Assembly (NCBI RefSeq): GCF_037042905.1
Contig: NC_087251.1
Coordinates: forward strand, 18,292,001-18,356,000
Reading direction: 5' to 3'
DNA from: Lytechinus pictus
Lineage: Eukaryota
DNA: 64,000 bases
Part shown: piece by piece, positions 12,816 through 48,786 of the stretch
Layout: every line of letters begins with the position of its first letter
Numbering within the stretch: the first letter of the stretch is position 1
Position numbers and translations under genes: made by a program
The notes under the pieces: generated by a model
Databases searched by the model: none
What the model saw: only the letters and a program-made list of their open reading frames with translations
Told to the model about the DNA's origin: nothing

Positions 12816-15800
12816 CGCATACATTCGTAATTCCGACGCTTCGTTATTCCGAAGGTTCGGTTATTCCGAAGATTCGTATTTCCGAAGGTTCGTCAATCCG
12901 AAAATGAAATGAGGTTCGTAATTTCGAAGGTTCGTTAATCCGAAAACGAAATAAGGTTCGTAATTCCGAAGGTTCGTTATATAGTCCGAAAACGAAATAA
13001 GGTTCATAATTCCGAAGGTTCGTCAGTCCGAAAACGAAATGAGGTTCGTAATTCCGAAGGTTCGTCAATCCGAAAACGAAATGAGGTTCGTAATTCCGAA
13101 GGTTCGTTAGTCCGAAAACGAAATAAGGTTCGTTAATCCGAAAATTAGATAAGGTTCGTATTTCCGAAAATGAAATCAATTCATTTTGGTAACAAAAACG
13201 GTGTTGTCATTACAAGATAACACGATATTATGCAATAATAGTAATAACGATCGATGATACATTGTGTGTGTTGTGGCCAAAGCATGTATTGCATTAAGAA
13301 TAGGCGCCCGTATCAAGCATAGGCTTAATTTCGATTTTATCTGAGCAATTGCTGCCTATAAGCAAATGGTTTAAGGATGCAGGGGATTAAGTTTGTTGGT
13401 TGCGTGCGAGTAACCTCCAGATAATAGGATTTGTATTGGAGGGGATGTCATTTTTAATAACAGCTTCTGCTGGTAATAGAAATAAAAGTAATACTAATAA
13501 TCATAATAATCCAAACGATGATCAAAATAAAAATGGTAATAAAGAATATAAATGTTAATGAAATTTCATTGATCGTTACGCCTAGTGTTGACAATGTTAA
13601 TGACGATCAAAATGATAACAGCTTAACATTTAATTTTTTTTTAAATCATATTCCATGTGAAATTTAAAAATGGAATGCATTTAGGTTCGTATCCATCGAA
13701 CAGTAGGCCCATGTGTGTGTATGTTGCGTCAGTGATGCTTATATATGGGTGTTGTGTGTTCGTGCATATCAGGGCCGAAGCCATGATTTTCTTTGAGGGG
13801 GTTCCGAATTTAAAAAAAAAGAGTGAACCCTTTGTAGTTCATGATCAGTTCCGTTACCTCCCGGGGCTGATCCAGCTTTCCCCAATGCGGGGGGGGGGGT
13901 TCCTTACGTTTTCCCCGATCGGCCGCTTAAATAAATAATGCGAGGGCAAGATCAATTTTTTTTTTAATTGTATGCATTCACACCTGAACAATAATTTTAG
14001 CTCTCATAGTAATTTTTGTATATTCGTATCTAAGTAAACAATTACTGCGAGCAGAAGGCAGAAGCTAAAATTTGCAATACACTGACCTAAAAACAGGAAA
14101 AGAGTACCTGTTTCAGATTGTTAGTGTCTCATGAGGAGGATAAAGAGGCGTATCTCATAAAACAGATAAGGCAAGCGCGAGCTGATATTTCTTTATATTC
14201 AGATTTTCAGATTCAGATTTATTTCCAACAGAAATGACATAAATATTGATACAAATCATTTTTCATACATTATAACAAATATTTACGATACAAAACATTC
14301 ATGATAATTAACATTATTATAAAGATAATACAAAACATTATTGTAGACAAAATTATGATATGTAGTTTAGATAGAAGAAAGGTATATGTGGAAATGGGAG
14401 ATTCACTCAAAAGCATAGCTTGTATAATGTGAACCCCCATCAAGGAAGAGAAAAGAGGAGAGAGAGAAAGAGAGAGACGCAATGGTTGTTATTTGCCTAC
14501 GGAGATTCACTGAATAGATTAAAAAGAACAGGATAATCCACAGAACAAGACAAAACGAAAAAAGAAAACGAAAAAAAAAAAAAACAGGACGACAAAAGGA
14601 AAAATAAACATAAAAAGAATCAGGACGAATTGCGACCGAAAGAGAGGATAAACAAAATGATAAAGACTAACAAAAATAACTTGAAGTCTGAGAGGAGATG
14701 ATAACGAGCGGGAATTAGTAATGAAGAACTCGGTAGGATTTAAGTAACAAGTTTTTCAGTTTTCTTTTAAAATAATGTATGGAAGGGCTGTTTTTTATGT
14801 TATTGTCGAGGGAGTTCCAAAATCTAGGGCCATCGAACATAAATGTACTCTTTGCCAATAAAGTTCTAATTCTGATCTGAAAGCCTGATATCTTAAACAT
14901 TTTCGTTACCTATTATCAAGATGGGTATCTAAAAGAACAATTGATGCGAGCACGAAGCGCGAACATAATTTTTTTTGTATTTCGATCTGAAAATAATTGA
15001 CAGTTTATGGACGTTTTTAATAAAAGAACAAGATATATATCCAATAAACGGTTGTTGCAAATCCGAAGCGCGAACTTTTTCGAGGTTTAGAACTAAAAAA
15101 TGGGTCATTCTATTCACTTTTTAATCATGAAAAATATGAATTTCTTGCTAAGAAATGATGCGAGCGCGAAGCACGCTCTGATTTTTTTTTTTTTTTTTGA
15201 TTTCTTATTGAAATGCCCCAAAGTTTTAGCTTGTGATTCACGCTCGCAACACCTCGCAATAATGCCATTTTAAGAATGATTGACCCCAAAAACGAGTTTT
15301 ACAACTTCAGTTTTGAATTTTTTTTCCAAGCCGCTCGCTCAATATACTCTCTCGCGAAAAATAAAGCCTGAATATACATCTTTCCATAATCAGAAGTCAT
15401 TTCAAAAAGGCTTTTCTCTACTTAATTATTATAAAACACGCAATGACTTCACGCAGATTATAATCTCAAGGTGAAAATAAAACCAAAGTGCCCATTTTGA
15501 CGTATGAGTTTTATTTTTGGCTTTGCCCCCCAAACGAAAATTCGTTCGGCCGCCCTTGCCTTCCCATCCTCATAACAATTGTACAGCAACGGTGCCCCCC
15601 CCCCTTGCCTCTGCCTCTGCTTTCCCGGTTTTCATTTTTCGAACCTTATTTCGTTTTCGGATTAACGAACCTTCGGAACAACGAACCTTATTTCGTTTTC
15701 GGATTAACGAACCTTCGGAACAACGAACCTTATTTCGTTTTCGGATTGACGAACCTTCGGAACAACGAACCTTATTTCGTTTTCGGATTAACGAACCTTC

Positions 15801-15996
15801 GGAACAACGAACCTTATTTCGTTTTCGGATTATCGAACCTTCGGAATAACGCCACAATTGTTCGGATTAACGAACCCTTTTTCGTTTTCGGATTAACGAA
15901 CATCGAGGTATAGGCAATTTACGTGTTTCGGAATTACGAACCTTCGGAATAAAGAACCTTCGGAATTACGAACCTTCGGAATTACGAAGTGTAACC
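12816..15996. mobile_element. Foldback-type element with inverted arms of 42-bp tandem units
   Basis: Arrays of TTCGTAATTCCGAAGGTTCGTCAATCCGAAAACGAAATGAGG at ~12822-13175 and the reverse complement at ~15635-15996; candidate TSD ACCGCCTC / ATCGCCTC. Confidence 0.7.
14198..14880 (-). mobile_element. 5'-truncated LINE (CR1/L2/Crack-like) 3' end
   Basis: Minus-strand peptide RTLLAKSTFMFDGPRFWNSLDNNIKNSPSIHYFKRKLKNLLL is typical of CR1/L2-group ORF2 C-termini; followed by a 3' UTR ending AATAAA-(TCTGAA)n at ~14198-14225. Confidence 0.7.
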
Positions 15997-18674: not shown

Positions 18675-18969
18675 GATAATGACGTAAGGTTTAACCAATC
18701 ACAAGAGCGATTTTTTTTTTGCGTAATATTCTATTAATAGAGATAAAAGGGGATTTTTTTTTTCTCACTGCACACGTACACGATACGATGTTTTGTTGCG
18801 TACCGCGACTGACACGTCTTGCATGCTGCAGCCTGCAGGCTTTTGGAGATCGTAAAGTCTGGTACAAAAAGGGCGATTTCCCAAATATTGCTGTCACTTT
18901 AAATGCATCGCATGCCTGCTTACTAACTGACTGTCAGCCTGTATTGCTATCTTCGCTTGACTGGTAAGT
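18675..18969 (+). promoter_or_regulatory. Candidate promoter and non-coding first exon of the cpRAS gene
   Basis: CpG-containing unique sequence with CRE-like TGACGTAA (~18680), CCAAT (~18695) and a strong donor CTG|GTAAGT at 18963/4. The ATG exon (23411-) starts after an acceptor, so an upstream UTR exon is expected. Inference only. Confidence 0.35.
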
Positions 18970-23427: not shown

Positions 23428-26400
23428 ATGGATTTTGGGAGCAAGTATGTGTTTGTCAAACAACGTGAGGAGGATGAAGAGGAAGAGGTCTTAGATGATG
23501 CTGAAGTATCTACCGGTCTTGATAAGCTCAAAGTTGAGATCAAAACAGACAGTACTAAGACTGGAGAGGTAGGTTTAGCTTAACACAGTTTCATATTTTT
23601 AATGGTTTACCAAAAATATTAAATGCATTTTTGTAACAATATTACTCCTCATTATACATGATATTTTCATCAAATATCTTTAAAGTTTTCACTTGATAAT
23701 CATGATTAGGCTACTCATCTTAATTTCAATCTCGGGATGGGGTAAGGCTACTCAGCATTTCGCTCAATTATTGGTTTATGGATGCTCCACAGAGCTGCGT
23801 AACATGCATTCCATTCTATTGATCGATATCACAATAATTACACTGCCCTGTATGCATGCATCAACTGATATTTCTGGCATGCATTCAAACTACAAATCTG
23901 ATGTGTTAGAATATACATGTAAAGCTGATTAATAGTAACAAGTATGGACCCCCCCCCTCCTTGATGTTTTTTAGCCATAATTACAATTTTTAGCCATTAT
24001 TAGAAATTTGATAATCACTTTCCTTCCGATCACATTTGAAATTTAAAAAAGTTAACACTGCATCCTTGCATGCAGCAACTATCACATTTAACTTTCAATG
24101 CAAGGCAGATCTGAAATTATCAGGCTGTTGTGATTGACTTTCACAGTATATTGTTATGGTATGCAGTGACGTCATATATTTGTATTGTGCTTATTGCATT
24201 GTCATACACGGTGTTGAAGGCCTATTGTTGCTTTTCAAAGAATAAAAATTAATATCAGTAAGGTATGTAAATGAGGTCAAGGATTAATCATAAAACTGAC
24301 TCTACTTCCTCCAAAATTTATAATTGGCCTTTCTGTGCATATATCCATCTATTTGCATATAAGTTATATATGACCGAATTACTGTATTTCAACCTAGTAT
24401 TACATTTTACTGTGCATTAGGGATTACCGGTAGTAAAACTTTGTATCATTTTCTCTAGCCTGCCTTACTTTGCAAATGAAATCATCATCATCTTGATCCT
24501 CATTTTCATCCTACATGTAATCACCCGTATTAAACCATTATCATAACCACCACCATCATCATCATCCGATCTACAAACAACTGTTCGAAGAAATTAGTAT
24601 TGTTATTGTTATTGTTGTTTTGTTTCTGTTATCTTTAGAAATAGTATTAAGTAGCAGTTTTGTTCAATTTAATTTATTCTTCATATAATTTGAATTCGCA
24701 ATTTTGATTCAATTATTCATTTCTCGAAAAAAAAGAAAAAAAATATATTATACACAATCATTATTACATATGATTACATTTGACATTTGATATCTGATAT
24801 GAAACATTCAATATCTAATGTGTTATCAGATATATAAAGCAAGTAAATAATGTATAAACACCACTGTCAAGTGATATTTTAGAAGGTATCAGCACTAAAA
24901 ATATGTGTTTACAAGGGCAAAGTTTGATTAAAACAAACATAAGGGGTGGTTCATGATGGTTGAATTCAAATCCAGAGTGAAATTAAATGTAGGTGGAACT
25001 TCTGTAGTCCCTGAACATCCTTACCCAACATGTATGTAGTAAATCTGTCTAAACAATTTCTTTAAAAAGTCATTACTGGATCCTAGGAACTGCATGATTT
25101 GTAAATCTGTAACCTCTCTAGAATGTCAGTATTTAATCTTATTTAGAATTACACAATTTTTTAAAACAAAATTATTTCATTAATTTCTTTAAAATTAGCT
25201 CTTATTTAATCAAACACATGGCATTTATATTGACTGTTTGTACATGTATGGAAAACTGTTGGCTCTTCCCTCTAAGATTCATAACAAGATATTAAGGATA
25301 CAATGAACACATGTATGCAAAATTTCTATAATATGAGAAATCATAATTCTGTTGTTTATCTTTTCCCCTCCCCTATACAGCCATGTATCATTGACTTATT
25401 GGATACTGCTGGCCAGGAGGAATACTCAGCCATGAGAGATCAGGTAAAAAAAATGTCCTTAAATGTATCTTCTTTTTTTCTTTCTTTGTTGTTGTAGTGA
25501 TTTGTTCCTCCTTTTTCTGAAGTTATGATCTGTCAATTATTTATAATTGAATGGAAGTTCAATGACATTTGCTCTGAATCTTGCACTAACCATTGATTTA
25601 CATTAGACCTTCCAAGTATTATTATTCAAAACCAAATCCAAATTATATCCCAATTCTATCAACTAAATGAAAATAATACAAGCAATCATTGCAGGATTCA
25701 ATATTGTTTTATTTAAGGTTAATAATTGAAGGATATGTGACATCGATATCAATTACAATCAATATATTCAATTTGTTCACTGAATTTGATATTAAAACTC
25801 ACATCCTCATTGATATGTTAATGAGTCACTTCAAGAGATACAAACTTAGCTTATCACAGAGATTACATGTTTGCACATATCTTCTTTAGTGATGTAATCT
25901 TCATTTACAAACAAACACATCCTCTCCAGATTATAAAATTTAGTGTCCGATTTTCATTGAAGTCTGATGTAAGGAGGATTTTGGTCTGTAATGAGTAATA
26001 ATAAATGATTGTAATCATTAAATCTTACCAGAGAGGATGTGATATGGAATCTAGAGTACAAGGATGTCCAAGTTGTTTTTAAAACCTTTTGATGAGGTAA
26101 TGTCACACAGGGAATGTAATTTTGTATTGTTGTCATGTAAACAAAAAATATGGGAGTTTATATGGAATTGAATTGCTTTAAGACAAAACTGAGGAAAAAA
26201 AATTACATCCGGTTCTTAAATTGAGAGATTTGTTCAGGGGCCGTGAAATGGTTTTCAAAGTGGGGGGGGGGGCTGACCATGCAAAAAATCACAATCATAT
26301 GGTCATTTTTACGTTTTTGTACATGGTTTTTGAAAAAAGTGGGGGGGGGCTGAAGCCCCCCCAGCCCCCCCCCCCCCCACTTCCGCAGCCCCTGTTGTTT

Positions 26401-29400
26401 AGTTACAGTTGTGGGGTGTTTGGTTTGACGATTTATTCACAGTTTCATTTGATTTAATGTATATAGAGTTAACCTAGCTGATTTGTTTTCTCTTTTTTCC
26501 CCCTTGTTATGTAATGTACTTTGTATGGATAAGTTTGTTCTTATGTATTATGTGTTTATTGTCTATATGGTGCACTCATCACAAGCACTGCTTACAGCAT
26601 TGCTACAGTCTGCATTGTGTTGTTAAATCTTTGAAATTGTGTTAATGCTTAGAACTATCTTTGGAAATAAATGTTGACTTGAATTGAATTGAATTGAAAA
26701 CTTGTTCAGCATAGACGAATGAAAAATATGACTTACTCTTCTAGTGTATATAAACCCCAACAATACAAAATCGATTAACTTTTCTTTGTTTTGGTCTAAC
26801 TCCAAATTAGTGTGCTTATGCTGTCATTGTAGGATTGCATATGTGAGACATAAGATATCCCATAATCGCATTAATATTTTTAAGCAATTGCTTTCACGGA
26901 AGTACCTATCTACTATATTTCCTGTCTATTAAGATAATGTTTATATTGATTGACAGATTATTTTACATATTTGTTCATTTGTTTGTTTTATGTCTTCAAC
27001 ATCAAAATGCTAAGAAAAATGTATGTATAGATGTTATGAATAGTGCATTTTGTAACATCTAATGTGGATTTTTTCTGCTGTTTTCTATTTTGTTTTTAAG
27101 TACATGAGAACATGCGAGGGGTTAGCTATTGTGTATTCCATCACTGACTTGGTGTCGTTTGAGGAAGCCATCAAGATTTACCAGTTTGGACTCAGGATAA
27201 AAGGAGACGATCATATCCCAGCAGTAAGGAATTACTTGAATTATGATTGTGATTTTAAAAGTATTTAGAAAATTAGAAATGACATCAATCAAATGAGAAA
27301 AAACAATTGTTTTTTTAACAATCCTGAAATTTATACCTATTTAGGAAGCTGTCAAGACTGCAAGCTTCATAAGCTTTGTCGTAGATGACAAAGCTGCTTA
27401 TGCAGCATGGCAAGACATCGTAAAAATTCCAAGTACAACTCTTGCCCAAAGATGATTCCAATCCATATCTACCTTTATAATCATATTACCCAAAACTAAT
27501 AACAAGTATTTAATGCCGTAATGACATAATATATTAATGTCATGTAATGATGTGATGTTTCATTTTAGTATTTAAGGTAAATATGTTTCATTTTATTATT
27601 TGATTTTGAGGTATAACTATATATACGTGTATATGTTTTTTTTTCAGGTACTGATTGGGAATAAGAATGATCTTGAGAGTGAAAGAAAAGTGAGTACTGA
27701 GAAGGGAAAGGAAATGGCAAGAAAGCATAACATGGTATTCTTTGAGACATCAGCTAAGACTGGAGACAATGTCCAGGAATGCTTCAAGGCCCTTGTCAGA
27801 GAGACACCCCGATATAGCAACAGATACAAGGTAAATCTAGACAACTATGTTTGTATCATCTCTAAATGGAAACCTGTGTATGAAAGATGAAAACAATATC
27901 TGAGATTAAGTTCTTTCCACATGATTTATTTAGGACTATTATACATGTTCACTGCCAAGGATTATTCTGATATGCTATCACTATTCGAGCTATGATACAA
28001 AATGGTTGAGATGTTTTGGTAATCATGTGGATGCAGTCCCAGTCATGTATTGCTATGTGCATATGGCTTTCAGCAGATTTGAGTCAAATTCTTTTTTGGT
28101 GGTTCTCAAATGGCACAGCATACTCTTAATATAGTAAGGTGCATAATAACCAACATTTTAAAACAATTTGAGGCAGCTTTTTCCATAATTCAATCTAGTA
28201 TCAAACCAAGAACTACTGAAGGGTATATCTTTAGTTGATAATATGTTGACTCCTGAATCTACAAAATAGTAGAGGAGGCCTCTAGAATTATCCATATATG
28301 AAAGTTATATGTCGATAAAAGTTGTCCATTCAAAGTTTCTATGAATGAAACAGCTGGAGACGAAATGATCTGCTGCAAACTACTAGTAGTCAGCAGATGT
28401 ACCATAATGAATGTTTCTTAATTCTGTGACAACATATTTTTTTCTTTCATAACTTGTTTTGATTTTTCTTTTTATGAATATAGGATGAAAAATATTGTCA
28501 GCTCTTTGTCCAATACTCTGCAATTATAATAAAATGTCATTAACTTTATAAATATCATTTTGCCTTGTAGTTTGTTGTTGTTGGAGGAGGTGGGGTCGGA
28601 AAGTCGTCCATCACTGTCCGTTTTGTTCAAGACGTCTTTGTGGACACTTATGATCCTACCATTGAAGATTCCTACGTGAAGCAGATTGTTGTCAGTGACA
28701 TTCCAGCAGATAAGCTCAACCCTCCTCCCAAACCAGCTCCCATGGTGCCTCCTCCTCCTCCCCAATCTGTTGGGTCACGTAAGTACTATCACAAGTTATA
28801 TTTACCTGGAAATCAAGCACATCAAGTTGTGCGCAGCATGTCTAACTTCAAACGCAAGCCAGACTTGAGCAAAGTACTTAGCCAAAAAGTAAAATTGAAT
28901 ACCAAAGATGGTTAGGCATTTACTGAAGCAGAATACTGATTAAAATTCTTAAATTCTGGCTTAAGTATGATCCCAAATTAACTCATGGATGATTTACTAA
29001 AGACATAACAAAAATTCTGATTTTTTTTTTTAAAGATGCATTCCATCTAGAAAAAAATGAGCACTTTCTTGGATTCATTTAATGAATTTGGGCATATTCA
29101 TGCTATCATTTTTCAAAACAAACTATAAGAATAATTCATAATGGATTATGAATGATTTTTTTTATTTGATTGACCTTAATATTTTGTAGATTCAGTAATA
29201 GCTGATAATGTGTGCTGATTTTAATTGAGAATGCACAGTTGATGCCCAAGATGTCAGGAGGGAGTAATCCTCCCCTGGTAATTTTCCTATAAGTGAGGTG
29301 TTAAAATGAAGAATAAAAAAAGAACTTAAAAAGTTTTTTTTCATTTTGTGCCAAATAAATGGTGATATTCTTTATCAAATTCTGTTTTGCCCCACTCATG

Positions 29401-32400
29401 TTATAAGAATATGAATTGTGTGCACTGAATGAGAAGGATGTGAGCTTTAAAGGTACATGAAACAATGAAACTATAAAAGTGGTACAATCTATAAAATTCC
29501 TTGGTGTTTTTATTGATTCCAAATTAATTTAGCATGAACTTTGGAATGCTCCGTCAGAAGAAATGAAATCAAGTCCTTTATTAAATGTTATTAAAAATAT
29601 CAGCCTCATTTCTATGTTTGTTATGTTATGTCTGTTTAGGGTTTGCCATTTATTATTTATGATTGTCATTAAGTTACGACAAAATGTTAATTTTAGTTGT
29701 TGTTTTTTTTCAGTCATGCTCTGTATACTTCCTGTGCAGTTACCGTATTTGCATGTATATCTATTTTGTTTGATTTTCTGTAGGGCCAAAGTCAGGTGCT
29801 TTTGGTGGACTTTTTAAAAAATCTAAAAAACAAAAAAAGCCAGGTGTGAAAAGTGAGTATCCATACTCATAAGATAAGATCAGATTTTATTAAACTCTAT
29901 CAACCCCATTATATTTAAGGCAAGAAATATAACGTTCTTTTCTAAGTAATAATAATAATAGGCATCTATATAGCGCCATCTATCTAGAAATGATCTATTC
30001 CGAGGCGCATTGTTTATTATTATTATTACCCCGCTCTTGCTCAAGCTACCTTTCAGCGCTCAGTGCATTCAAGTATGTTATCTGTGTAAAAGAAATGTTT
30101 GTGCATCACAATTAACCATAATACTGCCGGGTCATTCAGAGGGGGGGGGGGCGATTCCATCCCCCTCCCCCATGATGTCAGCACACAAATAACTTTCAAT
30201 GGCCTAATCTAGAAAACTGTACAGTCCATTCTTTTTTCAGAATATTTTTTAAACTAATCCTCTATGTTAATTTATGCATAAATCAAAGATATGCTCTAAA
30301 GAAGAAATAATAGCCCCAAATTGGCTCATTTTGTGTAAAGAAACTCTTTATGAGATTCTGATTAAATTTTTCAAAAAATTCAGTGCATCACAATTTTTTT
30401 TTAAATGTTTCCAAGATTTCTTATGTGGTTGATTATTTTGGACCTTGTGTTTTTTCATCGTTATTTTTGTATAGAAATCTTCAGACTTAAATGTGATTTT
30501 AGTCTAAACTTTTATGGAATGCTAGAGTTAATATTCCTTATTCAGGATATATGAAAAGATATACTGATATTATCCTATTCTCTTATTTCATAGCAAAACT
30601 AATAATTGCATACCTTTTCGTGGCAGGATGTAACATATTTGTACACAGTGAATGAAGTGGCAATTGGCACTCAATATTAAAGTGTGGTTTATCTCTTTCT
30701 CCTCTCCCTCTCTTTCTCTCCATGTCTCTCTTTCCCTCTCCTCCCATGGTTACAAATATCACCTACAGCTATGATGCAGCAGATGCCGCAGATGGTGTCG
30801 CAGAATTGTCTGGGTGGACCTCCACCTCCTCAACTGAGACAGCTATTGAAGGGAGGAGCATCAAAGGTAGCCGCACCCAAATCTTATCGCCGAGCTGATG
30901 CCAACGTCATCTTGCTATCTCTGGGATCCCTGGAGAATGACCCAGTCATCATGACAGGTGACCCGGTACGCTGCTCCAACTCCAAGTGCAACATTCTGTT
31001 GTCCCATGTCTCCAGGCTAGAGCCTGTGGAGAATGAGGAGCAGCGAAATTGGGCCTGGTGAGTTTGAGCCACTCTTGCTTATCTTGTGAAATATGACCTT
31101 TCCTAATTACCTTTCAAATCCAAACTGAATAACTTCTGACGACATCAGATATTTATGACTTGATTTTGTTTTCCCTGTTTTCAGTGAGTTTTGTGGCCAG
31201 CAGAATGGAGGACTGGACATTGTAGATGAGGAGGTAAGGAGAAAAAGTCTTGTTTCTTCAAGATTATAGTGACTATGAAATTATAATTCTAACAAACCCT
31301 CTGGTATCAATGGGTTTTAGGAAGTGAATGCATTACTCTATATGCATTACCTTGAAATGCCACCGCGCTGTAAAAGGCTGCAGGGCTAAAGCCAGGGTAA
31401 TAATATCCAAGTCCTTTAGAAGCGCATAGGGACATTATGACATTATGTGATATGAGCTATACAAGAACTGCATTATTATTATTATTTATTTATTATTATT
31501 GTTATTATTTATTATTATTATTAGTATAATTATTTTTAAAGTTATAGAATGATGTTACACTTATGGCATGTCATGAACTCTTTAGCCCTAAAATAGGAAG
31601 TCACAAAATTCACCTGCCTGAATGATATTTGGTAGATTATTCTCTAAAGGGAACACATAAAGCTCAAATTACATCCGCTCATCTTGTCTGTTGTATTTTT
31701 TTTGCAAGACTCATTTAAAGGTCACATCCATCTTTTGAATTCTCTTTGTGTGTGCGTTTGTTTGTTTTTTCTTAGCAAAAGTCTTATATGCCTTTAAAAA
31801 AATTGATGTAGTAACTTTAGTTGACCCTTAAATTTTTGAGCATGCACAATGCTCTTTCCATCGCATGTTCCATATTTTAATTCTTGATGTAGCGTTAAAA
31901 CTGAGAACCAAAAATTTAACAACCTGATCGGCCTGATTGATATTAAAAGGTACCAAAAGAGAGCAGTGTTGATTACCTGTTGGCAGCTGCACCAGAGAAA
32001 GTAGCAGAAGGAGAAGAGAAGGACAAGGATGGCAAACCCTCATCCCATCCTGGTCTAGTTCTTTACTGCGTTGACATGAGTGGTTCTATGGCTGAGAGAA
32101 CACAACTCCCTGAGCTTCAAGGTAATTTAAACAAGTATTCTAATTCTTTTTTACATGTTTTTTAATAGTTCTCCAGGCTCATTATAAACTGTCTAGAATT
32201 TATAAGGAAAATTAGCAGAAATGTAGGACCAACAGAATTATTAGCGAATGGCTGAAAATTGACTGAATATAACACAATGGTGACCTGAATTAGAGATACA
32301 TGAAGAGGCTTTTGGAATGATATCCTCAGTGGACCAAACTTTCAGTGTTTTGTTGTTTGGTGTTTGGTATTCAGTGTTTAAATCACGGAGCAGGCTCCTT

Positions 32401-35400
32401 AAATGAGCTCCAACACCATTTCTGAGTTAAAACTGAAAACACCAATCCCATTTTGATAGCTCAAAACTTGATCAATATCAACGCCAGCCCGATTTCAAGT
32501 ATGGTGTTGTGGCTTTTGGTTTATTTGCCCAATGTTTTATTTGCCCTTAACACCTATGCCAGCTGCAAGCACCAAACTTTCGATAACGCAATGTGAAATA
32601 GGGATAGGTAAGGTCAACTTTGATGATTGGTTCTATTTATATGATTTCTTTTTATCTTGTAGCTGCTTGGATGGCGCAGCGTGGTCAAACAAATTCTAGT
32701 GTTACCCGTTTGGAGTGTATGAAGCAGGCTATTACCAGGTAAGGTATTCATTGCTGGTAACGTATACCAACATAATAGGAAAACCGATAAAACAGGAGAT
32801 TTGTGAGAATTTTAAATAATTTATACAGCTTTTCCATCTACTTTGTGTAGATCGATTGGGAGTGCTTTTCATCAACATTAGTCATCTGACAAGCTGTCAG
32901 ATCCGACAAGTTTATTTGAGTTTGATTGGCTGAGAAGCACTGTCACTATGGTTACTCTCAGATAAGATATACAAGTCCTGTCATGAAACGCTTGGCAGGG
33001 GGTGACAATGTTTGCAGTACTTTTGTCTCAAAATAAATGAAAATAATTGAAATGAAAAGAACAACAGACATATCCCATCCAGAAATAATGAGTTTGAGGC
33101 TCCGTATTTCTTGACAGTTTGCACCTGCAGTTTGGTAGCTCTGTATTTATCAGGGTTTTTTTTATCTGTTTGTGTTTGATATTTTAGTTTGTGTTTTGTT
33201 TACACAATGTTTTTTTTCTTCATTACTTGAATTTGATTGTCTTTCCACTCAGACAACTAGATTTCTTTGAGCTGGATGAAGAGAGTGAAAAGAGGGTTGG
33301 ACTGGTAACCTTTGAGAGTCAAGTGTTAGTTAGAGGAGATGGTAGTCAGACCCAAAGGAGTGTCTCTGACCCCATGACTAATATGCAAGGTCTCATCAAG
33401 AAAGGAAAAGACATGGCATCCCAGTTTAACATCCGCCCTGTCAGCTCTGCAGTTGGGTAAGTGCCTAGCTCTCCCTAGAACAATTAGTTAATTCTGACTA
33501 AACGTCATGCTTGAATACTTGTAAAGTAATGATATTTTTTTATTCTTGGCCCTATTTTACAAAGAGATGTGATAGTTGCAATCAATCTCAATAATGGAAA
33601 GCCATCATTATCATAAATGATGGCATGCTTTTCATAGATTTTTATTTTATTGATCAATCACAAGACAGGACCTGTCACATCTCCCCAACCAATATTCCTA
33701 CTCTCAATGCAACCAACCCTGCCTGGTTTTCTTCATACAGAGACCTCAGGTCCCAGGTATCTAATCTTAAGACTGCCGGTTCCACTGCCCTTGGTCCAGC
33801 TCTGTGTGTCTGTGTAGGTTTACTTGCCAAAGAACCTGGTTCTGAGATTGTCCTGTGCACAGATGGTCAGCCTAACGTTGGGGTAGGATCCTTTGGATTT
33901 GGGCACCACAGAGGAGACAGTTCAGAAGCCATATCTTTCTACAGACAGGTAAGACATACATGTATATCTTAGATTTGTAAAGTCATCAATCTGTGTACGT
34001 TGTATCTACATTTTTACTTTTGATTTATTTACATGATTTAAAAAAGCATTTTATTTATAGAGCTTTGCTTGAGTGATTGCTGTTTAATTTAAATGAGAAA
34101 GAACTTGCATGTATATAGATTGATAAAAAAATATACTCAGTGTGACATTGAATATGCAATATCTTGTCAATATTACAAACCATGTGGCTTAAATATTAAA
34201 ATGCCACCATGCATGTAATATGTAAAGGAAATAAATTATTTATAGTATAGACCTGTAAGTTCCTTTATTTAGTCACCATATTTATTGCAATTACATGAAT
34301 TGTAGATTATGTCACCAAATGATATATATCAGACATTTTTAATGCATCTTCATGCTTCTTACATTGATCATGAAAGTTATGAAAATGACTACACTTTACG
34401 TGCACAAATTCTGTGTGCAAATTCAATAACTCAAATCTAAAATGTGTAGATTTTTATATCTATGAATTTTAATAGTGATATGAATTTCTAATATTTTGAC
34501 ATTTCAAATTGATATGATTTATTGATATTTCATTCTTTAGATTGGCAACATCGCTAAAGAGCAGCAGACAACCATCTCAATCATTGGGATCCAGACGAAC
34601 CAGTCTCTACAGATGGAACACATTAGCAATACTGTCTCCATCACCGGGGGCAATCTCAACCTCCTAGACCCCCATGAACTCACCAGACAGATTCGTCAGC
34701 TGGGTCAGGATCCTGTAGTCGCCAACGACGTTGAGCTCACCCTCGTCCTCCATCCCATTCTCCAGTTTGATGAGACGATGACTGAAGGGGTAAGTCTAGA
34801 TGATACTGGATTTTAAAGGGGCGGGGGCTTAAGTTTGGTGCAGATAACAAAGTGTCATTGTGGTCAGTGAAATCTAAAATCATCAATGCTCCTTGTACTG
34901 CCCTATAATAGACAGTTTTAGATTGGTAGGACAATTAACCCGATGGCATGCTATATGACTGCCGTTGTCCCCATAGTTCATGCCTTGTTGCAAGTTTTGA
35001 TAGCGTCCCCCTATACACTAAGGCACACAGAAAGTAACCAGTACATTCCAATTATAAATGAAAGACACATTTGGTTCTTTTCCAAGTAATGTCCATATTG
35101 TCACTTGCCACCATAGAACTACATTAAGATTTTCTTTTTTTTATAGATCTACATCTTCATTTGTTATATTTTGTTTGTTTTAATATCAGGTGATCCAAGA
35201 TGGAAACCGTTTGACAATTAACATGGGTAATGTCCATCGGTCTACAGACCTGACTTTTCGCTTCAAACTCAAACCAGGACAGAGTGAGGCACAGCAGAGT
35301 ACGCTTCCTTTCCAGGTACGTATCCTCAGGATTTTCTAGTAACCCCCCTCTCAAATTTGTTTTACCAGGTGCAACTATAACCCTGCTCTTTGAGTTTTAT

Positions 35401-38050
35401 TCTAAATTAGTTTTCATGTTAGATTTGCATGATATCAAATCATTTACCAGTCATAATGCTTCATAGGTATTTTCCTTCTGTCTTGCTTTCATTCAGCATT
35501 ACATTTTGTCTTCTTTCGGTAGGTTGAAATCCGTTACACTAAGACCGACGGACGACGTTTCCTAAGGACCATTACCCATGAGCGTAGCACTACATCTGAT
35601 CGATCAACTATGGAAACGGTGAGAATAAACTCTCTTTCTCTCTCTCTCTTTCCTCCTGTCTTATCCTTCTCGCTCTCTCCTCTCTATCTTTTCTCTCTCT
35701 GCCTTTCTTTCTCTCTCTCTGCCTCTCTTCCTCTCTCTATCTCTCTCTGCCTTGCTCCCCATTTTCTCTTTCTAATTTCATTTAATTGTTTTGACCCATG
35801 GTTCACACAAATGACTTTGATGATTCCAAAAGACTGGAACATGTTCTTAGGTGCTAAATCAGTCACACAGTGATACACCGTTAAGAATAAGAACACATTA
35901 ACAGTCAAATGTAAAGCTTTTAACTTACAAATAGCCTCCTGGGTTTGTTCTATTAAAAGTTAGTGCCTCTTAGTTAAAACAAAACTAGATGGCCAGTACA
36001 TAAAACCAATGAAATGGCATGAATGCTTGCCTTTAAGCATGTCTAGTCTCTAAAGGTTTCATCATGTCGTGCCATCTGAAGAGTAATCATCACAATTTTC
36101 TAACCACGAGTTATCGTATCATAAACAGGAGATGAACCCAACTGTAACTGGTCTGGCTACTGTACAAGAAGCAGCAAAGATGGGAGAGAAGGGAGACAGA
36201 TCAAAGGCTAGGGGTCACATGTAAGTATTCCTAGGATTTCTTATTTCTTACCTCTTTTTTTTGTTCAGATATGTATGCATCACATTATTAAGGCCGAAGT
36301 GATGTATTCAGGACATTTGGTGGAAAATGGTGTTCAAACCTGAATGCATCATCAGAGGAAACAAAAGCTAATTTCCTGAAGCATGATTTACAGGAAAGAA
36401 GAGAACTAGCTATAAATGAAACAAAACTGTTATTTGATGTAGTTACAGAATTATGTCATTATATGGTGTGTTTTGTGAATAATTATTTAATAGTAGTTTT
36501 CAAAGTCAGCACCTGCTGCTATATTGAATTCTCGCTACCCCAAATAGGAACAAATATCTCATAATGCGCGAGACGAGATAATTTTCACTCCGTCGGGTCG
36601 TCATCACCACTTCCGGTTCAGAGTCATGCTCGCGCGAGGTTCGCGATACGGAGTTCTCCACTACGCTGAAATCGATGCCAATCAGCGTAATATGTACAGA
36701 TTATAATACTTTTTATCTAATTTGGTCAGTTTTGATTCCATTTGAATTATAAATATAAAAAAAATATATATTTTACGTGAAAATAATTTTTATTCATGTT
36801 TTTATTTGGTTATAAAAAAGTAAACAAAAATTTAAATATCTTAAAATTTTGCATTTAGCGACCGGCCTGACATTACGATCGTATTCCACTAGACGCTAAA
36901 TATATACAGCATTCATTCCGTTCAATTTTTCGTCGACCACAAAATGGATAAAAAATCAGTTTCGGAACTTAAAAAAATCTTAACTGACAGAGGAATACCG
37001 TGCAATGGAAAGCCTCGGGCAGAATTAATGACTTTAGCAGAAAAGGCCGTTAAACTGTATCGTGAAAGAGAGGGTTGTGATCACGAACTTTCCGAGCGAA
37101 AGCGACGTTGTGTTGTTGTGCATGATGGCACTGTTGATCTGAATGGCAAAACAGTGCATTGGACTTCCGAACAGGAAGTTGTAATACCGAAAAGCTATCC
37201 CATAATGCAATGCGCGTTACAGGGATTTTCCCGGATCTCGGCGAAATCGCTATTTGGGGTAGCGAGAATTGCGTAATGTAGGCGAGACTGCCAGAGGCGC
37301 TCCACTTGTTATGAATATTCAATAATATATGCTCTTAACACAATAGTAATTTTCAGGTGTAAAGACTTCCTTAAGGAAGCTGATCACCAATGGCAGTGTT
37401 TGAATCTCTTATTGTTCAATGCAAATTTCTTAATAGATGGTCCATGGCAAAGATGATGCAACGATCCAATGCATCATACGGTAGTGGAGATGTTCTACAG
37501 CAGCAGGCCCAAGCAGAATCTACCATCCAATTTCTAAACCAAGCTGCAGAACTTGATATGGCTTATGGGTATGAAGATGATGTAAGTATTGTCTTGACAA
37601 ACTGGGATCCTCTCTTCTTTTTATGCCTCCAACCAACTGTCAGGAATTATTTTTTATTTGTAATTGTTTGGAAATCGGGTGAATTTAATAGCACTTAGGC
37701 TGTTTTTCTTTCATTTTATTGCTGACATCTATTTTTTATATTTTTACCTCACTGGTTGCTGGAGGCATTATGTTTTGAGTTGTCTGTGTGTATTTTCCTC
37801 CATCCCATCAAATCAACTTCATGGTCCAAGTATATGCATATGGGAGTGACAAAGATTTAATTTGATTATTGAGGTAAAAGGTCACAGAAGTCATATACCC
37901 CAAAATATATTGTTCTTGCAATAACTAGATAATTGTTTAGGGGTTCATATTCTAACATGGTTTTTGTTTGCATATAGAAGTGACAATGGTCTAATTACAT
38001 TTTGGATTCATTAGGTCAAAGGGCACACTGGTCATTGTATACTGTACCTG

Positions 38051-38088
<38 letters not shown>

Positions 38089-38502
38089 GGGGGGGGAGAT
38101 AACTTGAAGAATCATCTTAAAGATCAATTTCGAGCGAGGATGATTTAGGGGTCACACGGTCAAAGTTGAAAGAGATCATCATTTGAAAATTATAGAAGTT
38201 TTGTGTTTGGAATATATTCTTTGTCTGGCAATAATGGCAGCATTTTTTATTGCATTGTCTTTAAAGTTGTTGTTTTTTAATGTTCCTGGAAAATTTATTG
38301 ATGCTAAAGAATAACTGAAATATTGACTCTTCTTTAAACTGTTATTTTGTAGAATGATGCTGTTGCAGCCACAAGCAACTTACACATGCGATCCAAAGCA
38401 GATAAGTTCCGTTCAGCAGAGGCCAAGATGTCTAGTAGTAATCTGAAGCTTAAGAAAGGAAAAGGAGCAGCATTTTCAAAGCAATATTATGGCTACCAAT
38501 AG
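23428..38502 (+). CDS. cpras1: Circularly permuted Ras protein (cpRAS domain, Sec23/24-like Zn finger, VWA), ~880 aa, 18 coding exons
   Basis: Exons 23428-23568, 25381-25443, 27101-27223, 27648-27830, 28571-28778, 29784-29852, 30769-31057, 31185-31233, 31950-32121, 32663-32738, 33253-33456, 33741-33948, 34541-34789, 35190-35315, 35523-35618, 36129-36220, 37437-37581, 38353-38502; all GT-AG, phases consistent, 2643 nt. Motifs in order: MDFGSKYV; G3 [15 protein letters not shown]4 GNKND; G5 ETSAK; G1 GGGGVGKS; G2 [15 protein letters not shown]...WACEFC; MIDAS DMSGS..T..LCTDG; ends KQYYGYQ*. Confidence 0.92.
26235..26394. mobile_element. MITE (CAGGGGC...GCCCCTG) in cpRAS intron 2; partial copy at ~20930-21030
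   Basis: Inverted termini flanked by TTGTT; internal GGCTGACCAT.CAAAAATCACAATCA.ATGGTCATTT shared with the copy at 20930. Confidence 0.65.
31350..31525 (+). mobile_element. 3' fragment of a SINE with (TTA)n tail
   Basis: ..AAGCGCATAGGGAC..GCTATACAAGAACTGCATTATTATT resembles the reverse complement of the SINE tail at 56519 and of the fragment at ~29947-30075. Confidence 0.5.
36527..37270 (+). mobile_element. 744-bp internally deleted DNA transposon carrying a SAP-like ORF fragment, in cpRAS intron 16
   Basis: Perfect 21-bp inverted ends AATTCTCGCTACCCCAAATAG / CTATTTGGGGTAGCGAGAATT; ORF 36944-37276 begins [29 protein letters not shown] (SAP-like). Confidence 0.8.
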
Positions 38503-41500: not shown

Positions 41501-42404
41501 ACCTCATTCTTCAGGAAAAATATATGAGTTATTTTTTTACATTAATCAAACCAATTATGCTGTTAAAATGATTTTTCTTTATTCATTTTATACTCGACTA
41601 CCTACGATATTCATTAACATTGTACGTATTACACATTACAAGTATTTTTGAATTTGAATTGACTTTGTTCGAAATTTTGAATGTCACATTAACTTCATGT
41701 ATCATTTATGAAATTATTCGAAATATCACTTTCCTGAATTTACTTCATTTTTTTTTTGGGGGGGGGGTGCATCAAAATATAATAGATTGCAATAATGTTT
41801 TTTCATTTCCATAAAAAACATCGACGATCGTTTTCTTTTATTAAAAAAAAGAAAATGTCTTTCAATATAGACCAGTCAGTCGTAAGGTGTGTGGTGGAGA
41901 CTGTCAGTCTAATGAACTAACGCATTAAAAACCCTCCCATCTTTTCTAGTGTTACGTAATATATTGACATAATGATATACAATGGTAGCGTACTTAGGGA
42001 AAGTGAAAACTTACTTCTGTACTTAAGAGAGACATCTCGATGCTACCCTTTTCACTCTTGCAAGAAGGGTTTTGTTTTCGATGGTATTGACACATCTGCT
42101 TGCGGTTATTTACTTTTGACAAAAAATGGGAGATGAGATTGAAGGTTGAAGGGAAAGTGGGAGATGCAAAGCTTAGAGACAGAACATTAAGATGGGATAT
42201 CGAGTTTGAAATGCAGCCTTTGTCCATCATATTGGTCTTCGATCGGTTCATATTGAATCCCATACTGTGATATTTTACACTTGTTGGATTTTATGAAGAG
42301 AACATGAATAACAACATGAGATGCAGTTTAGGAACTAAAGGAACATACGAAATATCGGAAGTTTGTGAAAAAATGTGACTTAATCTTTGACGCAGTTTAT
42401 AGCA

Positions 42405-43842
42405 ATGGATTTGAAATTAACATCTCAGACTATATGTTGGGTGTGTTCGCTGGCCGTTTTCTTTGTATTTCTCTCATTGTATGCCTCTCTCAACGACTGG
42501 GATTCCTTCAAGCCAGAACCTTTTTTTCTTGAACAAAGTTTTTCGAATATGAGCTATGTTTCTAGGGAAATCTACAGACAACGAGACAGGTTAAAAACTA
42601 TGACAATTTCAAGCGAGTCTGGAGGTGCTGAAGTTGACATCGAACTTTCGTCTTTTACGGAGGAAGGGATTAATCAAACCTTCGATGAGATGTTAATACA
42701 AAATGGTGACGATGATGAAGATGGATCAGAGGCACCCCGTGAATCTTTGAATACATCTACTGAAGATATGATGTCTTTAAATGAGACAGTCCCTCCCAAA
42801 TATGACCCTCAAGTCTTTGTTGATCTTTACAAGAATATGACGATCACTGATCTGGGAAAAACCAATCCACCACCATGCAGTCATCGTCATCATGGCCCAA
42901 TGGCGGTTCGGTTCAAGCGTCTTCGGAGAGCTCTTCAATCAGAACTCGGATCTATTTTACATGTTTGAGCCATTGTTTGCTACTAAGGAATTACGAAAAA
43001 TAAAAGGTATTGGATTATATACACCTGAGAGTGAACAACTCTCTAGGAGTATCTTGAGGAAAATGTCAAAGTGCAATTTTGATCCCGGTTTTGTGAGTGC
43101 GTTAGATCATTGGAACGGGAAAACTAAGAACAAAGCGATATGTAAAGCATCGCAAAATTGTAAGATAATATCTCCTAGCTGGATGAGTGGTTTATGTCAT
43201 AAGTACAAAGGCCAAATTGTCACCAAGTTGATAAGAGTTAATTTAGAACTCTTAAGACCACTCGTGGTCGATGATCACACCAATCTAAAAATCATCCACT
43301 TAGTAAGGGACCCAAGAGGCTCTGGATTGTCACGGATAAAATACCGTCTTAGTGATATGAAAATCGCTCCAACAGTCCGTTCTCAATTCCCCCAAACTGG
43401 TCGGTTAAAACCTTTAAAACTTTTAAGTGTCACCCCTGAAACAAGTCAGACTATTCGAGGAATGTGCACGTGGATCAGAAATAATGCAATCGTATCACCC
43501 AATTATCTACCTGCTTGGTTACAGGGTCGTTACTACCTGGTCAGGTACGAAGACTTTGCGGACACCCCTCTTAAGATCACCAAAGACCTTTACAAGTTTG
43601 TAGGAATCCCGTTCAAGAAGGAAGTTAGCGAATGGGTGATGAAGAATACGCATGTGGATGACAAAACGAAACTTCATGGATTAAATAATAAATTTTCAAC
43701 TCACCGAGATTCGCATGTGGCAGCTACGCATTGGATCAAAGATCTCACTAAACTGGAAGTCAAGCAGATAGAGGAGGAATGCATGGATGTTTTAGAACTA
43801 ATGGGTTACCAACCCTATAACCAACTTATGCGCGAAATATAA
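42405..43842 (+). CDS. Carbohydrate (Gal/GlcNAc-6-O) sulfotransferase, CHST1-7 family, interrupted by one frameshift near 42841-42880 (pseudogene, null allele or assembly error)
   Basis: Frame A from ATG 42405: short cytosolic tail, TM segment ICWVCSLAVFFVFLSLYASL, acidic stem. Frame B (+1): VIVIMAQWRFGSSVFGELFNQN..FEPL (5'-PSB), IIHLVRDPRG..SR (3'-PB), VRYEDFA; stop at 43842. Confidence 0.85.
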
Positions 43843-48497: not shown

Positions 48498-48786
48498 ATG
48501 AATTAATAATTTATGTACATATCTATACATTTATTGGACATTATGATAAACTTGTTTGATACTGACTGATATATTTTCTTGTCTTCCATTTGTAATCTCA
48601 GACTACATTTCGACATAGTAAAAAAGAGGTTAATGGTGGTTCGAAGCACGGTAAGTCTCTCTTAACAATCCTTTTTGGAACCCTTTAAGGTATAGTGGTA
48701 ATATAATTTATGTGAACACTCTTGGGAGAAAGGGATTCTAATATTCGACGATTTCGTAAAAGTATATTACTTTGATTTTGAAAATA

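Follow-up and report, generated by a model that had tools for sequence, protein, structure and literature searches.

A Ras GTPase whose two halves follow one another in exchanged order raises the question of what such a domain acts upon, and this question is posed by the stretch analysed here, a window of 64,000 nucleotides from the sea urchin Lytechinus pictus (NCBI RefSeq assembly GCF_037042905.1, contig NC_087251.1, positions 18,292,001 to 18,356,000 of the forward strand; coordinates below count from the first letter of the window). An initial annotation had described the locus as a circularly permuted Ras GTPase spread over four exons at 25381..28778; these exons are correct, yet they span only the GTPase of an 18-exon gene, CPRas1 (23428-38502, + strand), and the domain is not the whole story but one part of an 880-residue protein with a zinc-finger, von Willebrand factor A (vWA), beta-sandwich and helical host. 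The answer that we prefer, and that we regard as evenly poised between right and wrong, is that CPRas1 works as a GTP switch within a single chain, its Ras domain being docked on its own host and regulating it.

The window was scanned in all six frames, with a motif scan for the five GTPase motifs G1 to G5, and exons were read outward from the GTPase. The 18 coding exons contain no internal stop, and the spliced product of 880 amino acids is identical at 880/880 positions to P0001, i.e. XP_054758753.2, the 'circularly permutated Ras protein 1-like' of L. pictus; the splice junctions are supported by this identity with the RefSeq model and by contiguous open reading frames (ORFs) of relatives. 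The locus is already known: RefSeq annotates it, its family was described in print in 2008, and the statement that cpRAS proteins are not new as a family stands (PMC2430557, in its available text, includes a sea urchin orthologue). The four GTPase exons have AG/GT boundaries and are joined in phase 0: exon 2 (25381-25443, +, residues 48-68) encodes Ras strand 3 and the G3 motif DTAGQEE with the Q61 equivalent; exon 3 (27101-27223, +, 69-109) the end of switch II, strand 4 and helix 3; exon 4 (27648-27830, +, 110-170) G4 NKND, G5 ETSAK, helix 5, the permutation linker and the start of strand 1; and exon 5 (28571-28778, +, 171-240) G1 GGGGVGKS, G2 YDPTIEDSY, strand 2 and the beginning of the linker, which is rich in proline there.

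The motif order along the spliced exons is thus G3, GNKND (G4), ETSAK (G5), G1 and G2, as the initial annotation had proposed, and the exons cover, in sequence, positions 49-67, 68-95, 108-160 and 2-45 of the Pfam Ras profile. Compared with KRas, residues 46-165 correspond to Ras 48-166 (E 1.9e-30), and a further segment, 168-211, to Ras 3-46 (E 9.8e-13); therefore the two halves of Ras are swapped. The best PDB matches of the domain are KRas and R-Ras2 (E 1e-45), and the Ras-family signature, including the TIE motif of G2, is present. The equivalents of G12, G13, K16, S17, T35 and Q61 are likewise intact, as had been claimed, and Ras 32-40 is identical to KRas, with changes on the flanks of the effector loop (E31 to T, R41 to V). 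In the AlphaFold2 model the last residue of helix 5 is 161 and the first of strand 1 is 168, so that the two are joined directly, as anticipated, through a link of six residues (162-167) rather than about seven. The Ras domain of the Strongylocentrotus purpuratus orthologue, folded alone, reaches a predicted template modelling score (pTM) of 0.90; its G3-G5 part superposes on Ras 47-166 (119 residues, 1.5 Å, Z 15.0), whereas neither structure aligner matched Ras to the G1-G2 part, which is placed on the strength of model confidence.

That the permuted order is an artefact, produced by misassembly or by wrong joining of exons, is vanishingly improbable. The six-frame scan gave one match each for G2, G3, G4 and G5 and one G1 inside the gene (a second G1-like match, at 48635, lacks Ras context), and it revealed no upstream G1/G2 exon in the window, which is one of the ways in which the proposed order might have failed; another, a local misassembly, is excluded because the order recurs in relatives. 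The GTPase-region search returned 326 proteins; motif order was scored in the 120 that were listed, and the permuted order is present as one colinear stretch in 105 of these 120, including proteins from the separate L. variegatus and S. purpuratus assemblies and several ORFs from transcriptome assemblies. The other 15 are mostly normal-order Ras by motif scan, two being tandem arrangements.

The distribution in animals is less patchy than had been claimed: among the matches listed, the permuted order occurs in sea urchins, starfish, a brittle star, a crinoid, a sea cucumber, hemichordates and lancelets, and also in many molluscs, the nemertean Lineus, the annelid Owenia and sponges, and beyond animals in Capsaspora, dictyostelids, Acanthamoeba and Willaertia. 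Among the 120 matches listed of the 326, none with the permuted order is named as vertebrate, arthropod or fungal. Several molluscs have CPRas paralogues, and a few architectures stand out: the database model P0096 (Pecten maximus) apparently fuses two tandem CPRas copies, P0098 apparently carries two permuted Ras-like units in tandem, P0191 continues from the cpRAS domain into a long hydrophobic region without vWA, P0124 combines cpRAS with a SAM domain and a zinc finger, and P0158 adds a RING finger.

How far the GTPase has been preserved was assessed in an alignment (A1) of 100 of the 105 permuted proteins, leaving out P0006, P0096, P0118, P0163 and P0191, with overall identities of about 31-48% outside sea urchins. 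Counted in these 100 proteins, G1 is kept at G10 (100), G12 (99) and G15/K16/S17 (100), the switch I region at F28 (100) and D33-P34-T35-I36-E37-D38 (100), G3 and switch II at D57-A59-G60-Q61-E62-E63 (100), and G4 and G5 at N116 (99), K117/D119 (100) and S145/A146 (100). Because the catalytic motifs show little or no variation across these 100 homologues, CPRas1 very likely binds GTP, and the conservation offers strong, though indirect, evidence of a working GTP switch.

The same conservation lends some credit to the idea, put forward in the initial annotation and unlikely in our view, that CPRas1 is a tethered but otherwise ordinary Ras, whose free effector loop would engage effectors with Ras-binding (RBD) or Ras-association (RA) domains, GTPase-activating proteins (GAPs) or guanine nucleotide exchange factors (GEFs) in trans, the host serving only to localise it. 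The stretch identical to KRas at 32-40 is nearly invariant, the R41 equivalent is R in 93/100, and G12 and Q61, which established Ras biochemistry requires for GAP sensitivity, are kept as such sensitivity would need. An invariant loop would, however, be just as expected if the partner lay in cis; the residue at position 31 is highly variable among the 100 proteins, and position 41 is V in all four echinoids of the alignment. No CaaX motif follows either, the protein ending in QYYGYQ and Cys at -4 occurring in 0/100 aligned CPRas, and, as shown below, certain host residues are conserved only where Ras is present.

The host of CPRas1 is predicted to adopt a Sec23/24-type fold with an intact MIDAS (metal-ion-dependent adhesion site). 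By domain search it matches VWA_2 (E 1.3e-8) and Sec23_trunk (E 1.5e-5) and contains a four-cysteine finger (C331, C336, C359, C362); its profile matches Sec24A at E 5.7e-18. The full-length AlphaFold2 model, built on the CPRas alignment, has pTM 0.89 and a mean predicted local distance difference test score (pLDDT) of 87.8, with residues 1-10 at 97 and only the linker at 234-289 below 50, and structurally it comes closest to Sec23 and Sec24 (Foldseek E 1.6e-24), with a vWA protein from bacteria and the archaeal ArnAB next (Z 21-22; ArnB Z 21.4). Zinc finger, trunk/vWA, beta-sandwich and helical domain, the domains of Sec23/24, follow one another in Sec23/24 order. No gelsolin-like domain was found in the model, which is helical over 747-880, and most Sec23A alignments end at chain residues 616-618 and model residues 851-856. 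In the 100 CPRas, the MIDAS is kept at D417, S419 and S421 (98), T541 (100) and D567 (99), as are the four zinc ligands, and the host half leads to archaeal clusters, most commonly of Promethearchaeota and Thorarchaeota (Atlas feature score 0.97).

Along the gene (all on the + strand), exon 7 (30769-31057, residues 263-359) encodes the end of the linker, the conserved ADANV strand and C331/C336 of the zinc finger, and exon 8 (31185-31233, 359-375) encodes C359/C362. The first vWA strand and the MIDAS motif D417-x-S419-x-S421 lie in exon 9 (31950-32121, 376-433), a vWA insert with W435 in exon 10 (32663-32738, 433-458), vWA and trunk sequence in exon 11 (33253-33456, 458-526), and MIDAS T541 and D567 together with E561 in exon 12 (33741-33948, 526-595). 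Exon 13 (34541-34789, 596-678) contributes the last vWA helix, 639-650, with E641/R644/R647/Q651, and the start of the beta-sandwich, to which exons 14 (35190-35315, 679-720) and 15 (35523-35618, 721-752) belong; the helical domain occupies exons 16 (36129-36220, 753-783) and 17 (37437-37581, 783-831, with E810) and ends in exon 18 (38353-38502, 832-880 and stop), which also encodes a basic tail.

The Ras domain does not simply precede this body. Exon 1 (23428..23568, +, residues 1-47) provides the ATG, a conserved MDFGSKYVF motif that is part of the host and can be aligned to where Sec23 begins, and an acidic tether. Sec23A aligns with the model (VIA: Z 24.9, 5.5 Å, 491 residues) from chain residue 17 and model residue 1, and yeast Sec23 from chain residue 12 and, again, model residue 1; such alignment ranges show first and last residues only, and the N-terminal correspondence was therefore checked by sequence. 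A search with the host half gave 131 new representatives, 111 of them without a Ras match and 104 of these beginning with Met. The N-terminal motif is found in 41/104 of these Met-initial GTPase-less relatives, always within the first residues (shuffled sequences: mean 0.18, maximum 2), and in 0/79 small GTPases; P0316 has it some 15 residues ahead of the conserved DTN strand. The motif is predicted to stand where Sec23 has its first residues, and since it both aligns with the Sec23 start and is present in GTPase-less relatives, the Ras domain is, on sequence grounds, an insertion between the N-terminal motif and the conserved ADANV strand of the host. Two Pelomyxa proteins, P0206 (Pelomyxa schiedti) and P0276, carry at this host site a Ras of normal order and retain 10/10 residues of the host patch described below; they nest among CPRas hosts in trees, a sister position not being rejected (approximately unbiased test, p 0.105), and their order may be either the ancestral state, with insertion followed by permutation, or a later reversal.

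We compared 112 Ras-bearing with 111 GTPase-less hosts, leaving out eight partial Ras matches. Ten residues, E641, R644, R647, Q651, E561, W435, P429, P667, E810 and E811, are conserved only together with Ras. In Ras-bearing hosts E641 is kept in 111/111, R644 in 107/111, R647 in 110/111, E561 in 104/111 and E810 in 104/106, versus 20/98, 4/97, 1/98, 3/98 and 22/84 in GTPase-less hosts (13 presumed fragments excluded), while the zinc and MIDAS residues are common to both groups, the MIDAS at about 100% in each. The patch score is bimodal: the 109 sufficiently covered Ras-bearing hosts score 6-10 of 10 and the 98 GTPase-less hosts 0-3. The 13 further GTPase-less hosts, which score 7-10, were considered as counter-examples and rejected; because the N-terminal motif is present in 0/13 and all of them nest in the CPRas clade, we read them as N-terminally cut CPRas, and with the 13 included the frequencies of E641/R644/R647 in GTPase-less hosts become 30/15/13%. 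E641, R644 and R647 were chosen in 200/200 random half-samples against motif-bearing GTPase-less hosts, and they lie on the last vWA helix, which is aligned with the last trunk helix of Sec24A. An exon 13 search for GTPase-less relatives matched only seven echinoderm CPRas.

Ras-bearing hosts form one clade (Shimodaira-Hasegawa-like approximate likelihood ratio test, SH-aLRT, 96; FastTree 0.957), the host of CPRas1 grouping with CPRas and apart from GTPase-less relatives, so that the patch marks a function gained or kept with Ras and not necessarily a contact. Mutual-information covariation between Ras and host in 100 sequences (effectively about 70) gave no pair above noise. A predicted complex of Ras domain 44-216, host 295-880, GTP and Mg scored 0.01 with the alignment unused, and is weighed neither way.

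One function that the patch could serve is that of a built-in GAP, R644 or R647 acting as a cis arginine finger, as Sec23 does for Sar1, to make CPRas1 a self-timing GTPase. We hold this to be distinctly unlikely: the near-fixation of both arginines with Ras, their rarity without it, the Sec23-like host and the invariant Q61 would all fit, but a single helix that presents a glutamate and two arginines spaced by three residues would rather suggest a surface for binding, and the catalytic residue of Sec23 sits in its gelsolin domain, which also gives part of the Sar1 surface (PMC11914678, available text) and is absent here.

The full-length pTM of the model exceeds the 0.73-0.75 that would be expected if the Ras domain floated (a rough calculation from assumed errors), thereby suggesting that the domain is packed on the host. 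Given this packing in the model and the Ras-dependent host residues, the first partner of switch I is likely to be the CPRas1 protein itself. A compact and confident model could also mean a fixed arrangement, i.e. a locked scaffold in which the nucleotide is bound structurally and never cycled; we consider this very unlikely, as Q61, G12, T35 and the whole of DTAGQEEYS, kept across amoebae, excavates and animals, would be superfluous in a locked protein.

Several points weigh against a Ras domain that docks on and regulates its host. The pTM argument depends on the assumed errors, and an ordered N-terminal tether could, by itself, fix the domain in the model without any switch contact; confidence in switch II shows no gain from the host, the blocks covering 51-70 scoring 79 and 71 at full length and 70 and 88 in the domain alone. 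That the patch faces the Ras domain is our inference; the patch was defined on the same two groups that it separates, and its residues could be shared by descent, stabilise the host or bind a third protein. The gelsolin domain, part of the surface that Sec23 offers to Sar1, is missing from CPRas1, and Asgard Sec23-like proteins that also lack it showed no nucleotide-dependent binding of an Arf-like GTPase (PMC11914678, in the text available). The basic character of the linker after strand 2, where a 15-residue window of net charge of at least +4 occurs in 90/100 CPRas, is a count without a control. Literature under the CPRas family names yielded no functional, biochemical or genetic study of any CPRas.

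With these points in view, the single-chain switch that we prefer would work as follows. The Ras domain would bind Mg-GTP and hydrolyse it by means of Q61; its acidic switch I (the D33/E37/D38 equivalents) would meet E641/R644/R647/Q651 on the last vWA helix, together with E810, in a docking resembling that of Sar1 on Sec23; the nucleotide state would be relayed to the host, whose intact MIDAS may bind some ligand; and the basic linker would replace a prenyl anchor and target the protein to membranes. The last helix of integrin I domains sets MIDAS affinity, and the last trunk helix of Sec23 adjoins Sar1. A bolder version, which we rather doubt, holds that Ras entered an ancient Sec23/24-like protein, of a type found in Asgard archaea too, behind its first strand, that switch I grips the last vWA helix, that GTP loading gates a metal-dependent ligand site, and that it is the host rather than Ras that accounts for the rise of permuted GTPases at this site.

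The linker itself is subject to splicing. Exon 6 (29784..29852, +, residues 240-263) is lysine-rich and lies within the disordered linker, and its 23 residues are missing from RefSeq isoform X2; shorter X2 isoforms are on record for L. variegatus and S. purpuratus too. Elsewhere in the window, a candidate untranslated first exon, seen by eye only, ends in a donor-like GTAAGT near 18965 (18930-18965, +). Intron 16 contains, at 36893-37276 (+), a 127-residue ORF with a SAP domain (Pfam E 2.7e-6), possibly a transposon remnant. A single-exon sulfotransferase-like gene at 42384-43842 (+) is read in two frames split near 42850, by a frameshift, an assembly error or as a pseudogene, and a tandem repeat of about 45 bases at 15600-15850 gives rise to long repetitive open frames.

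As a gene, CPRas1 is ordinary; its value lies in the handle that it offers on an unstudied family. The insertion in a Sec23/24-type fold and the host patch that tracks Ras are modest additions to what was known. [quoted passage not shown] E641, R644 and R647, the MIDAS residues D417/S419/S421/T541/D567 and the alternatively spliced basic exon 6 make this reading directly testable.

Among known systems, the closest is the cpRAS-VWA type. Both cpRAS and this type were defined by Elias and Novotny (2008, PMC2430557), who included S. purpuratus, noted the zinc finger and the GTPase-less relatives and, in the available text, left the function open. CPRas1 shares with the type the order G3-G4-G5-G1-G2, a length of about 880 residues (840-970 in the type), the four-cysteine finger and the vWA/Sec23 trunk; its domain starts at 46-48, behind an N-terminal region that measures 40-66 residues in the type, and its disordered segment at 234-289 corresponds to the poorly conserved linker. 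The S. purpuratus protein is 83% identical to CPRas1 in alignment A1, and sea urchin members have V at Ras R41. The main text of PMC2430557 describes the N-terminal 40-66 residues as poorly conserved and without recognisable homology, whereas here they begin with a conserved motif common to GTPase-less relatives, so that the Ras domain is an insertion, a point absent from that main text. As far as their available text goes, PMC13393502 regards CPRas as possibly ancestral to eukaryotes and PMC8296547, PMC4082629 and PMC11764893 only mention it. With canonical Ras (HRAS/KRAS/NRAS, R-Ras2, M-Ras) CPRas1 has in common the G motifs, the effector core 32-40 and a G3-G5 part superposing at 1.5-2.2 Å, and it differs in its permuted order, its large host, the missing CaaX and the replacements at 31 and 41.

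With COPII Sec23/Sec24 and Sar1 it shares the zinc finger, the vWA trunk, the beta-sandwich and the helical domain, ordered and arranged alike (Z about 25), and the association with a small GTPase; in contrast, identity is only 14-17%, the gelsolin domain is absent, and the GTPase belongs to the same chain and to the Ras rather than the Arf family. The MIDAS, lost in Sec23/24, is intact in CPRas1, and the likeness to a coat is one of predicted fold only, with no evidence of a coat. In the parts of these sources available, Sec23 uses trunk, helical and gelsolin domains to bind Sar1 (PMC11914678), a key patch lying in the helical domain (PMC9291540), and ArnB combines a metal-bound MIDAS with a Sec23-like core (PMC12852372). 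Asgard Sec23-like proteins (PMC11914678) and ArnAB (PDB 8s05, PMC12852372) thus resemble the host in having a Sec23 core without a gelsolin domain and differ in having no fused GTPase; the closeness of the Asgard proteins to the CPRas host is by Atlas features alone, and the term cpRAS has 0 occurrences in the available text of PMC11914678. The YRG or YlqF-YawG GTPases, finally, are also circularly permuted P-loop GTPases, but they belong to another family and are broken elsewhere, giving G4-G5-G1-G2-G3 (PMC2430557, available text), whereas CPRas1 has G3 first.

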